Below, piece by piece: positions 2,426 to 28,128 of a DNA stretch of 64,000 nt (its first letter is position 1; every line of letters begins with the position of its first letter). The stretch comes from a virus (taxonomy: Duplodnaviria > Caudoviricetes). The position numbers and the translations under genes are program-made. The stretch is from IMG/VR virus record IMGVR_UViG_3300031673_000001; one strand, 5' to 3'. The notes below the pieces were generated by a model that worked only from the letters and a program-made list of their open reading frames with translations, ran no database searches and was not told where the DNA came from.

Positions 2426-2776
2426 CTATTCCTTAAACTTACCTTCAACTCCTCTTCTTTGTCTATCTTGTGTTCTAGAATCTAACCAGTGTAAAGCTTC
2501 TTCTAATTTTGTCAAAGCTAAAGCATTTTCACGACAAGGAAAATTACCACTCTGAAATCCACGTAATCTATCAATAACAACTGCAATTAAATCTTCATTG
2601 AAGCAACCATTGGCCACTGTCTCTTCAACTGGTCCTTTTTGAAATTTAATCCTTGTGACCATTTGCCTACCTTCTTTTCTAATAATGTCATACTCATGAC
2701 AAGCTCCTCCCATACCAGGTTCATCAAAAGCATAAATAGTGGTAAATCTTTCTGATCCAATTTCTACTTTTCTCAT
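2426..2776 (-). CDS. tad1: Tad1-like (Acb2/Tad1 hairpin) immune-signal sponge protein
   Basis: GGACHEY...IKFQKGP...EDLI.VVIDRLRGFQSG.F.CRENALALTKLEEALHWL..R..DR..RGVEG matches recalled Tad1 pattern; start 2776 chosen from GAGGAG RBS (track start 2791). Confidence 0.85.
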   Translation of the reverse strand: MRKVEIGSERFTTIYAFDEPGMGGACHEYDIIRKEGRQMVTRIKFQKGPVEETVANGCFNEDLIAVVIDRLRGFQSGNFPCRENALALTKLEEALHWLDSRTQDRQRRGVEGKFKE

Positions 2777-2787
2777 TTTATTTCTCC

Positions 2788-3357
2788 TCAATATTCTTCA
2801 TTTTCATTAATATTTAAATGATTATAAACCCTATATTTTATTCCTGATTCTTTAAGCAAATATTGAGATGAGTAATCATAGTAACTTATCTTCGTAACTA
2901 TGATCTCATCTATTCCAGCATTTATAATTTCCACCATACATTGAGAACAAGGAATGCCACAATTCATATACAACTTTGCACCATTGGTAGCAATTCCATG
3001 TCTTGCAGCATTAATCAATACATTTCGTTCCGCGTGTCCTGCTAAACACCATTCAAGACCTTCACCTGATTTAAATCCCATCTCGGGAATATGTCTTGGA
3101 CATTTTCCTTCTAGATTTTCTTCATAAAATTCTTTAGTAACAAACTTAAAATTTGCCGCCTCTTGCATCTTCACATCATAATTCCATCTTTCATCACAAG
3201 TTCTTATTCCCCTTGGAGGTCCATTATATCCCTGACATATAATTGTTTTATCTCTAACTAATATAGCTCCAATTTGTCTAGATAGACATTGACTCTTTTT
3301 TGCCACAGTTCTACACATCTCATGATACCAAGGATCCCATTCCATCCCTTTTCTCAT
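2788..3357 (-). CDS. dCMP deaminase
   Basis: CLSRQIGAILV, GYNGPPRG, HAERN, PCSQC zinc motifs. Confidence 0.92.
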   Translation of the reverse strand: MRKGMEWDPWYHEMCRTVAKKSQCLSRQIGAILVRDKTIICQGYNGPPRGIRTCDERWNYDVKMQEAANFKFVTKEFYEENLEGKCPRHIPEMGFKSGEGLEWCLAGHAERNVLINAARHGIATNGAKLYMNCGIPCSQCMVEIINAGIDEIIVTKISYYDYSSQYLLKESGIKYRVYNHLNINENEEY

Positions 3358-26389: not shown

Positions 26390-26410
26390 TATTCACTTCC
26401 TTTCTTGTAT

Positions 26411-27043
26411 TTATTTTTTCAACTCATTATCTAATTCTACACTTGCAATTGCTTTATAAATTAAAGCTTTTTCTGAAATAACTTCATCATATGCATTCTC
26501 AATAAGATACTTTACACTAAATTCTCTACCTTCAAGTTGATTTCTATCTTCTTCTTCACATCCTAATTCATCTTCAATATTACTCAAAAGCTCATCAGCA
26601 TCTTCATCTGGAACATGATCTATAGCATTAAAGACTTCAGCTACTCCTTTTTTACCTTTCCAACCTTTACTAACTGCAGCAAAAAATTGTTTTTTCTTTT
26701 CTCCTTCTAACTCATTTGGAGAATTAACACCAAATTTTTGTAGCATTCCTTTAAAATATTCTTGATATCCACTTTCTTCTCTTATATTATATTTTTCACT
26801 CATATCTAAAATAATATCAACCATGTCCATAGCTGATTCAATAAGTTTAACTTTACCATATCTTCCATCTAAAATATCGTCAACTAATGTATCTGAATCG
26901 CTCATAATTTTTTGCTCCTTAGTTGGAACTCCCATAGGACCCTGACCTTTTCCTCTGCCTTGACTTTTTTGTTCTCCCTCCGGGATACATTTTTTTCTCA
27001 TTGGTCAATAAACCATCCCTTCTGGACATTTTGGATCTGCCAT
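26411..27043 (-). CDS. Putative head-internal protein with an in-frame TGA at codon 13 (possible selenocysteine)
   Basis: GGAGGAG RBS and ATG 27043 one base after the upstream stop; MADPKCPEGMVY*PMRKKCIP continues in frame into track ORF 26411..27001; YQEYFKGMLQKFGVNSPNEL..EKKKQFF resembles recalled T4-like head-core motif. Confidence 0.65.
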
Positions 27044-27044
27044 T

Positions 27045-27443
27045 TTATTCTCCTCCAGTGCCAGTACGCCTACGATAAGCGGCAACTTTTCTTGTTATTT
27101 GTGATATTCTATTACGTATTTCTAATCGTTTTTTTCTATATGAGTCAACAGCTGCATTGATTCCCTTTGAACATAATTTTGGATTACTTGCTTCCACACA
27201 TTGACTTCTTAATGTAATAATTCTTGCCAGAGCTTTATCAATAGCACCCATATGACAAGTTTCTTTACATAAATCTCTTACATATTTATTTTCTTCTCTC
27301 ACACATCTAGAATCATAACAATCAGTCCAATCCAAATTTTTTTGTCCTTTAATTCTAGCAATAGCTAATGTGGAACTGAATTCCTCTGATAAAAGCTCCA
27401 GCTTTTCATCTACAAGAACTTCAGCGTCATATAATTTAGACAT
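27045..27443 (-). CDS. Cys-rich virion-type protein (divergent member of the 4-Cys family)
   Basis: C...C...LRSQCVEASNPKLC pattern shared with 27454, 30542, 47002, 50700. Confidence 0.65.
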   Translation of the reverse strand: MSKLYDAEVLVDEKLELLSEEFSSTLAIARIKGQKNLDWTDCYDSRCVREENKYVRDLCKETCHMGAIDKALARIITLRSQCVEASNPKLCSKGINAAVDSYRKKRLEIRNRISQITRKVAAYRRRTGTGGE

Positions 27444-27453
27444 TATATTTTCC

Positions 27454-28128
27454 TCAATCTTGTATATAATTTAAATATTTTAAAATCTCTTCTTCTTTTA
27501 ACTTACTTTTATATTTTTTTATCTTCGCTTTAAGTTTATTTATTTTAGAATCCATTTTCTGAATACATTGTTTAGGATTTTTTGTTTCTTTACAATCTTT
27601 TTTCTTATTTTGAATTGCAGAAATATAATGTTCAGCAGCTTTTGATTTAAAACTATTTATACAATTTTCTTTATCATTGCCACTTCTTCCTTTACACGCT
27701 TTAGCTGCTTGAGAAAAGAATTTTTTATAAGCAACAATTCCTACTGCAACAGCAGAACCAACAAGCAAAGCGACTCCAATTCCGATAGCAATATTTTGAT
27801 CTAACCCCAAAATTTTATCAGCAGATGTTGTTTTTGAATGTGACCCTAATGGTATTTTATCTGCATCTTGCCATTTTTCATATGCTCCTCTTGACTTAAA
27901 ATATTTGCTTTGAGCTGTTCGTCTGGCGTCCTTAATTTTTTCATAGTTATCTTTCACAAATTTTATTACATTCTCATCACCAGTTTTTCTAGCATCTTGT
28001 AATACATGAGCTGTATTTCTTTCCTCTCTTTTTAAACTAATAAAATATCTAAAAAGACCATTTAATTTCTTTTCAGCTTCTGGATCATAACGACTCTCTA
28101 ATATATATTCAGTGATTGGATCTATCAT
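27454..28128 (-). CDS. TM plus 4-Cys domain protein
   Basis: TM helix then YKKFFSQAAKAC...C...C..TKNPKQC. Confidence 0.75.
   Translation of the reverse strand: MIDPITEYILESRYDPEAEKKLNGLFRYFISLKREERNTAHVLQDARKTGDENVIKFVKDNYEKIKDARRTAQSKYFKSRGAYEKWQDADKIPLGSHSKTTSADKILGLDQNIAIGIGVALLVGSAVAVGIVAYKKFFSQAAKACKGRSGNDKENCINSFKSKAAEHYISAIQNKKKDCKETKNPKQCIQKMDSKINKLKAKIKKYKSKLKEEEILKYLNYIQD

Follow-up and report, generated by a model that had tools for sequence, protein, structure and literature searches.

A candidate selenoprotein gene in a giant phage

We analysed a stretch of 64,000 nt from the IMG/VR record IMGVR_UViG_3300031673_000001 (hereafter the window, whose coordinates are used throughout). 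It derives from an uncultured giant phage, has a GC content of ~30%, is densely coding and uses the standard genetic code. On its minus strand lies a gene of 210 residues whose 13th codon is an in-frame TGA that is probably read as selenocysteine (Sec, U). An earlier note on this DNA had proposed such a reading, based on a TGA at a cysteine-type position followed by a hairpin resembling a selenocysteine insertion sequence (SECIS). The positions it gave for the ribosome-binding site, the start codon at 27043, the TGA (27007-27005) and the hairpin (26989-26970) proved exact on re-reading. The features of the locus are as follows.

27050..27056, minus strand: Shine-Dalgarno motif GGAGGAG, 6 nt 5′ of the true ATG, read from the sequence
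27047-27045, minus strand: stop codon TAA of the upstream gene, read from the sequence
27041..27043, minus strand: true start codon ATG; Cys-form homologues begin at the equivalent site
26411..27043, minus strand: the entire gene, P0001 (210 residues, residue 13 being U), from translation and alignments A1 and A2
26981..27028, minus strand: module C6-P-E-G-M-V-Y-U13-P-M-R-K-K-C19-I-P21, defined by an alignment of 14 orthologues and by other phage families
27005..27007, minus strand: in-frame TGA, candidate selenocysteine codon (residue 13) in a UGA-C context, from the homologue alignment
26999..27001, minus strand: database-called start ATG, which gives P0002 (196 aa) and has no Shine-Dalgarno motif ahead of it
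26970..26989, minus strand: SECIS-like hairpin UGU-A-UCCC-(GGA)-GGGA-GA-ACA, from ViennaRNA folds

The N-terminal frame reads M-A-D-P-K-C-P-E-G-M-V-Y, TGA, P-M-R-K-K-C-I-P-E-G, and stays open on to the stop at 26411. The candidate Sec module at the N-terminus is followed by a Gly/Lys-rich linker and by a helical body with a phrog_28651-type domain (profile match over residues 91-132, E = 7.8e-07), a segment that also matches Vibrio, Pseudomonas and Tenacibaculum jumbo phages. The corresponding DNA (window 26639-26773, residues 91-135) encodes a conserved helical domain, and some jumbo-phage records label this region 'DNA ligase 1'.

The start at 27043, which the earlier note had preferred to the database-called start at 27001, is borne out by its strong Shine-Dalgarno motif and by the Cys-form homologues, which begin at the same place, one or two bases past the stop of the upstream gene. 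The ATG at 27001 probably encodes no more than Met15 of the actual protein, since it has no Shine-Dalgarno motif and most TGA-bearing relatives have no start codon there.

The TGA is genuine and UGA remains a stop codon

P0002 is present on 17 contigs, and both of the contigs read at the DNA level carry the TGA. Contigs of four runs were compared with window 26400-27500. Two soil runs, from which the window DNA may itself derive, were identical to it over this interval. A marine-sediment run from a separate study was ~98% identical; its 11 substitutions and 18-nt insertion lie in other parts of the gene, and the TGA and the hairpin are unchanged. Retention of the TGA in contigs of several runs, including the ~98% variant from another study, answers the concern of the earlier note that the codon might be a sequencing error.

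UGA is used as an ordinary stop codon in the window, where TGA terminates 24 of 81 open reading frames (ORFs) of at least 90 aa, often as ATGA overlaps. The candidate codon is the sole in-frame TGA of the window with convincing coding sequence on both sides. Other single-TGA joins were considered and rejected, as they overlap neighbouring genes.

Homologues carry either cysteine or TGA at the candidate codon

Relatives were found by protein search with the read-through product, and the N-termini of 'short' database calls were re-read from DNA. Full-length relatives, such as one reading K-C-P-E-G-Q-R-W-C-P-V-K-E-Q-C-I-P, have Cys exactly at the TGA site, and TGT or TGC occupies the codon in L007-L012, L014-L016 and about 25 further clusters. 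Seven orthologue lineages from different metagenomes, with 35-83% identity to the window protein, have TGA at the same codon. TGA forms include the following.

L005: 83% identity to the window protein (alignment A2)
L017: 58% identity (alignment)
L001/L006: 56% identity
L013: 53% identity (alignment)
L028: 45% identity (alignment)
L004/L033: 35% identity over the best tblastn segment, on a 248-kb IMG/VR contig

The earlier note had held that Sec would be supported if homologues had Cys, or kept the TGA, at this codon; both were found, with ~30 Cys clusters and TGA in at least seven lineages. It had also named Trp in homologues as evidence to the contrary. A profile search (A2) over 1.84 billion representative proteins returned 2357 relatives at E <= 1e-3, most of them via the central domain, and among the listed matches that possess the N-terminal module 30 had Cys and none had a genuine Trp at the candidate position. 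The lone relative with 'W' (P0010) is the L013 protein, whose TGA was called under code 4 in its source database. Two further matches (P0058 and P0061) start just past the U position, as does the window's own gene call.

In the TGA forms, the residues flanking the codon are conserved on both sides with synonymous codon changes, and most read P-V-K, P-I-R or P-I-K after the TGA, so that no start codon is available there for re-initiation. The residues that are invariant in the 14-sequence alignment include C6, G9, U/C13, P14 and C19, and this is the best-conserved stretch of the protein. U and C forms are interleaved on a maximum-likelihood tree, which indicates ~4 switches between them (bootstrap range 3-5), at least two of which are forced by well-supported branches.

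A hairpin accompanies the TGA

The window hairpin has a 4-bp UCCC/GGGA stem, 3 further bp across an internal loop and a GGA triloop. It spans codons C19-I-P-E-G-E-Q, and 23 nt separate its first loop base from the UGA. ViennaRNA gave an energy of -5.6 kcal/mol for the hairpin alone and of -6.4 kcal/mol for the 57 nt after the UGA. The hairpin uses the rare Pro codon CCG, which accounts for 33 of the 604 Pro codons in the window. A hairpin comparable in stability, loop and distance was found at 0.2% of random coding-strand positions in the window. Seven other TGA trinucleotides of the window also have a qualifying hairpin; none is in frame, and these sites were discarded as candidates.

A compact hairpin is formed by each of the 21 distinct TGA sequences; its energy lies between -5.6 and -11.7 kcal/mol (mean -7.3), and its loop of 3-5 nt begins 21-26 nt after the UGA. 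The mean for eight distinct Cys sequences was -2.8 kcal/mol (Mann-Whitney p = 4e-5 versus the TGA forms, kinship ignored). The stems vary by lineage (UCCC/GGGA, UGUCCC/GGGACA, UUCCUGA/UCAGGAA, UCCCUG/CAGGGA, UGUACC/GGUACA, GUUCC/GGAAC and UGCGUACC/GGUGCGUA), and, counted from the loop, the third pair is AU in 7, CG in 8 and UA in 6 of the 21 sequences. All 21 loops (GGA, GGG, GGU, GGC, GUU, GUA, AGUU, CGGGU and CGUGA) fit N(0-1)G[G/U], a criterion to be read with the caveat that the loop G bases derive from a Gly or Val codon. The hairpin with a G-first loop that the earlier note had described thus accompanies the TGA in all forms and is mostly absent from the Cys forms.

When synonymous codons were resampled according to window codon usage, p < 0.05 was obtained for 10 of the 21 TGA sequences and for one of the eight Cys sequences; the window hairpin itself gave p = 0.055. 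The Gly in C-x-P-x-G, which is the source of the loop or of the 3′ arm, is present in 17/21 U forms versus 4/32 C forms (Fisher p = 1e-6, kinship ignored). This bias toward U forms suggests that the RNA element has shaped the peptide that follows the module.

Two close pairs of U and C forms serve as natural controls and support the same association. L054 has two neighbouring copies, one with TGA and an intact hairpin (V-P-V-G-T-G), the other with TGT and a disrupted hairpin (V-P-V-G-S-G). L015 (C) shares 86% DNA identity with L001 (U), and the 20 nt after the codon are identical in the two, whereas 5 of the 12 hairpin-arm bases differ. The two L054 copies are adjacent module genes on the minus strand (L054:853-1329 and L054:1344-1955), so that candidate Sec and Cys versions occur in one genome.

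In Zhang and Gladyshev's model of the bacterial SECIS (bSECIS), of which PMC13188914 (Fig. 2) gives a summary, an apical loop of 3-9 nt sits on an upper stem of 4-16 bp, a G stands at loop position one or two and is usually followed by G or U, 16-37 nt separate the UGA from the apical loop, and the minimum free energy (MFE) is -7.5 kcal/mol or lower. The window element agrees with this model in loop and stem size, loop G and spacing, i.e., in three of the four constraints. The relatives have 3-5 nt loops on 5-8 bp stems at a spacing of 21-26 nt, and the MFE bound, taken here with ViennaRNA rather than bSECISearch energies, is reached by L001, L028, L004, L032, L044 and the L042 group (-7.5 to -11.7 kcal/mol). 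Several relatives satisfy all four constraints. The family also agrees with all three of the criteria for new selenoprotein families given in the methods of PMC1976440.

The module recurs in unrelated phage proteins

Beyond what the earlier note had observed, the candidate Sec codon makes up, together with its hairpin, a short portable module common to many unrelated phage proteins. The module motif, C-P-x-G-x-x-[WYF]-U-P-x4-C-[IV]-P, is ~16 residues long. A strict DNA-pattern scan of IMG/VR with C-P-x-G-x3-[TGA/TGC/TGT]-P-x-[KRE]-K-K-C gave eight matches, all of them with TGA, and a looser pattern gave 42 (33 TGA and 9 TGY). In the looser scan, the AT-rich, Lys/Glu-rich matches with an aromatic residue before the codon were nearly all TGA, with two Cys variants (L054a and L074); GC-rich matches were dismissed as off-frame noise. 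A TGG version of the pattern had three matches in IMG/VR, none in module context. A site with a genuine TGG was seen at L084:3726-3772 on a viral contig of 54% GC, where a Cys-rich protein contains C-P-S-G-Q-E-Y-W-P-S-I-Q-Q-C-I-P; the site may represent either a Cys-rich repeat with no relation to the module or a far-removed Trp version of it.

The module was found in at least seven unrelated phage protein families, at the N-terminus, at the C-terminus or internally. It is N-terminal in the candidate Sec family, in a cupin protein (L032; PF07883, 5e-15) and in L044, internal in the "MPVPKPK...ICLG.W" family (U at about residue 72), and C-terminal in the "MELKINESK" family (U at residue 165-214), L029, L043 and L071. 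Pfam and PHROG searches with eight other module-bearing proteins returned a single domain, the cupin, in one protein. The earlier note had likened the C-x6-[UGA]-x5-C pattern to a motif of T4-like phage proteins, an occurrence that found no support: when the Cys-form motif peptide was searched by tblastn in 50,697 GenBank phage records, noise was all that came back.

A second phage in the soil samples carries related DNA. Window 26975-27007 (33 nt) is matched with 3 mismatches by a second, more abundant contig in soil runs X1/X4 (depth about 79), which reads V-P-A-C-P-R-G-F-K-W-TGA upstream and represents the module gene of a different phage.

A scan of 185,579 prokaryote species, each represented by one genome, found one real module copy, on a 1.5-kb phage-like contig, and the module thus looks phage-specific. 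This copy (L083; CBFCXS010000229.1, 1576 bp) is of the same type as L030 and was binned in a 'Candidatus Woesearchaeota' metagenome-assembled genome, probably as an artefact.

Genomic setting and host

The candidate Sec gene stands in a late or virion-type operon, together with a volactin-type actin-like ATPase (PF25216, 1.6e-74), a 130-aa Cys-rich gene and a GT9 glycosyltransferase. The order volactin / 130-aa gene / candidate Sec gene / GT9 is kept in every relative recovered, and contigs with the same gene reach 237 kb. The two upstream neighbours (window 27045-27443 and 27454-28128, minus strand) encode a Lys-rich, multi-Cys helical domain, and a C-terminal extension of four orthologues of the candidate Sec gene (P0008, P0009, P0011 and P0012), M-K-K-K-V-A-A-A-K-A-K-C...C, resembles this domain.

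Public runs with this DNA are labelled as soil (2019), marine sediment, sediment and aquatic metagenomes, and no RNA run is listed among them. The closest GenBank phages are uncultured huge phages, which match through the actin-like gene only and are without the module. The host would be a bacterium, judging from the strong Shine-Dalgarno motifs, the presence of a transfer-messenger RNA (tmRNA) in a relative and the lipopolysaccharide-type glycosyltransferase. A look-up of a substrate-binding protein (Atlas) was tried as a guide to the host phylum and rejected, as it returned mixed phyla.

Decoding machinery was sought in the 248-kb relative G001, in ten other related contigs (G002-G011) and in a tRNA array of ~19 kb adjoining the window. 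No tRNA-Sec scored above the Rfam cut-off (RF01852) in these sequences, where the matches below the cut-off were ordinary long-arm tRNAs. A tRNA with a UCA anticodon was absent among the ~28 tRNAs of G001 and the 19 tRNAs beside the window, and ARAGORN found no tRNA within the window. With no Sec machinery found on the phage contigs searched, decoding would have to rely on that of the host.

Several other genes were seen in and around the window and in a relative. An intact tRNA(CUA), an amber suppressor, lies at L094:7290-7367, ~12 kb before the window start, in the same standard-code phage. Relative G001 likewise has a tRNA(CUA), at L026:16785-16861, and a tmRNA at L026:18212-18562 with the tag ADDYYTEVALAA. 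An RtcB gene lies ~13.5 kb before the window start (L094:4560-5759). Window 2426-2791 (minus strand; L093:8305-8655) encodes a 116-aa product with a precomputed Pfam match to PF24729 (Acb2/Tad1 hairpin), a family of anti-CBASS/anti-Thoeris sponges, and near it are QueC, MazG, dCMP deaminase and dGTP diphosphohydrolase-like genes.

Selenocysteine insertion and the alternatives

An in-frame UGA is conserved at a cysteine position, its flanks are translated, and a hairpin with varying stems co-occurs with it. We consider the likely explanation to be that selenocysteine is inserted by host SelB and tRNA-Sec via a minimal SECIS within the ORF. The ribosome would meet UGA-C at codon 13, the hairpin 15-34 nt past the UGA would recruit the host SelB-GTP-Sec-tRNA(Sec) complex, and Sec would be inserted in place of release by RF2. 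UGA and SECIS would fit in ~50 nt that also encode the module, making it a self-contained unit. The Cys and TGA homologues and the hairpin that tracks the TGA support the proposal of Sec insertion made in the earlier note; from them we infer the dependence on SelB, the insertion of selenium and the function of the product.

Several results weigh against this explanation. The genes selA, selB and selD were not found in the phage contigs searched. Taken alone, the window hairpin is weak evidence, and at -5.6 to -6.4 kcal/mol it falls short of the MFE bound of the bSECIS model. In the C-V-P-V-G-T-G variants the hairpin follows near-automatically from the peptide (synonymous-resampling p about 0.3), because GUN-CCN-GUN-GGN-ACN is self-complementary. 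RNAalifold found no single consensus structure in an ungapped alignment of the 21 TGA sequences, since their hairpins occupy at least three registers; it likewise found none in the eight Cys sequences, and the Rfam scan of the window at gathering thresholds had no match. It is the comparative data that place the combination of UGA and hairpin far beyond chance.

Other readings of the UGA have to be set against Sec insertion. If it were read by a near-cognate tRNA (Trp, Cys or Arg) in leaky or programmed read-through, residue 13 would be an ordinary one and the UGA would throttle expression. UGA-C is the leakiest bacterial stop context, and it is found in every case; the downstream hairpin might also favour such read-through. 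The hairpin is small, and none of the phage contigs searched yielded Sec machinery. Even so we judge it unlikely: outside the TGA forms the position is invariably Cys, TGG is never seen there in module context, Trp or Arg would hardly be tolerated at an invariant residue, near-cognate read-through of typically a few percent would be wasteful with the UGA at codon 13, and the hairpin agrees with the SelB-type model in its position and in its G[G/U] loop. That UGA is suppressed or reassigned in general, by an alternative code of the host or an opal-suppressor tRNA of the phage, is very improbable. The tRNA(CUA) genes of the phage and of G001 imply interference with stop-codon decoding, and one database called P0010 under code 4, but UGA terminates 24 of 81 window ORFs with many ATGA overlaps, a single in-frame TGA has coding sequence on its two sides, and neither the tRNAs of G001 nor those beside the window include a tRNA(UCA).

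The gene callers start at 27001, and both the window and L001 have an ATG two codons past the TGA, as expected if translation stopped at the UGA and re-initiated to give a 12-residue leader and a 196-residue protein. There is little chance that this is so, because most TGA-bearing relatives have GTT, ATT or ATC instead of a start codon, the module is internal or C-terminal in several families (U at residue 72-214), the 12 residues before the TGA match the remainder of the module in conservation, and no Shine-Dalgarno motif precedes 27001. A nonsense mutation or sequencing error in a decaying or truncated gene, for which the bare presence of a stop codon is the only argument, is effectively refuted: more than 20 distinct sequences, drawn from over 20 metagenomes, share the TGA and have both flanks conserved, and P0002 is found on 17 contigs, with the TGA read in two of them and in the 98% variant.

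Taking Sec insertion as the preferred reading, we considered what the residue might do. AlphaFold2, run on the 14-sequence alignment, returned a poor model (mean predicted local distance difference test score, pLDDT, 59.6; predicted template modelling score 0.26), with a beta-hairpin in the module (residues 1-20, pLDDT 67-77; strands 10-13 and 18-21) and a helical segment at residues 91-130 (pLDDT 75-82). With modest confidence, the modelled beta-hairpin would bring U13 near C19 and C6. We speculate that Sec forms a redox-active selenosulfide or part of a three-ligand metal site that anchors or cross-links small late phage proteins; the sole basis of the anchor idea is the pattern of ligands, the modular distribution and the Cys-rich genes nearby. 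Such a role might also fit an anoxic sediment or soil setting. On balance, we lean towards a broader proposal: that phages of anoxic sediment and soil carry a portable Sec cassette of ~50 nt, without a cellular counterpart, which has been grafted onto at least seven unrelated proteins, and that they routinely use host SelB and tRNA-Sec, probably for a selenosulfide or metal anchor.

Comparison with known systems

The phage gene resembles bacterial genes with a SECIS inside the ORF, whose prototype is fdhF of E. coli, in having the UGA at a Cys position, the UGA-C context and a downstream stem-loop in coding sequence. It also shares with bacterial selenoprotein genes the small G[G/U] apical loop 16-37 nt from the UGA and the repeated interchange of Sec and Cys forms. 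It differs from them in being phage-encoded and in having a hairpin at the small end of the range (4-8 bp, mostly 3-4 nt loops). Furthermore, the protein is not a known redox enzyme, and the candidate Sec lies in a 16-residue portable module of unrelated proteins.

Recoded large phages of the crAss-like and Lak groups reassign TAG or TGA using phage suppressor tRNAs. Like the genes of such recoded phages, the candidate gene is open only if a stop codon is read as sense, and a suppressor tRNA(CUA) is carried. In contrast to them, a single, position-specific UGA is concerned here, which is equivalent to Cys and tied to a hairpin, while TGA stops 30% of the ORFs; by genome-wide criteria the window is not TGA-recoded.

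Selenocysteine decoding has been described for cells and for two poxviruses. The poxvirus peroxidases are the only virus-encoded selenoproteins named in a review of viral recoding from 2021 (PMC8310308), a 2026 review of prokaryotic selenoproteomes leaves phages and viruses unmentioned (PMC13188914), and in a marine trace-element survey viral sequences were few or absent among the selenoprotein families examined (PMC9402790). We found no report of a bacteriophage selenoprotein in the literature searched. If our reading is true, the module would be the first phage-specific selenoprotein domain, and phage gene callers would systematically truncate or split such genes; the database protein here lacks its most conserved 14 residues. 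Phages would then rely on, and bear witness to, selenium metabolism in their hosts, providing a new marker for host range and ecology, and the very small UGA-plus-SECIS unit, with a tolerated peptide, would be of interest for engineered site-specific Sec insertion.

The nearest viral parallel is provided by the glutathione peroxidase selenoproteins of poxviruses, which are GPx1-like in molluscum contagiosum virus and GPx4-like in fowlpox virus (PMC8310308, PMC1802603). In both settings a viral gene has a Sec-UGA read, or in the phage probably read, by host machinery, and the fowlpox SECIS also lies within the coding region. The poxvirus proteins, however, belong to eukaryotic viruses and are captured cellular enzymes with a eukaryotic-type SECIS, whereas the phage gene combines a putative bacterial-type SECIS with a module that has no cellular counterpart among 185,579 species genomes.

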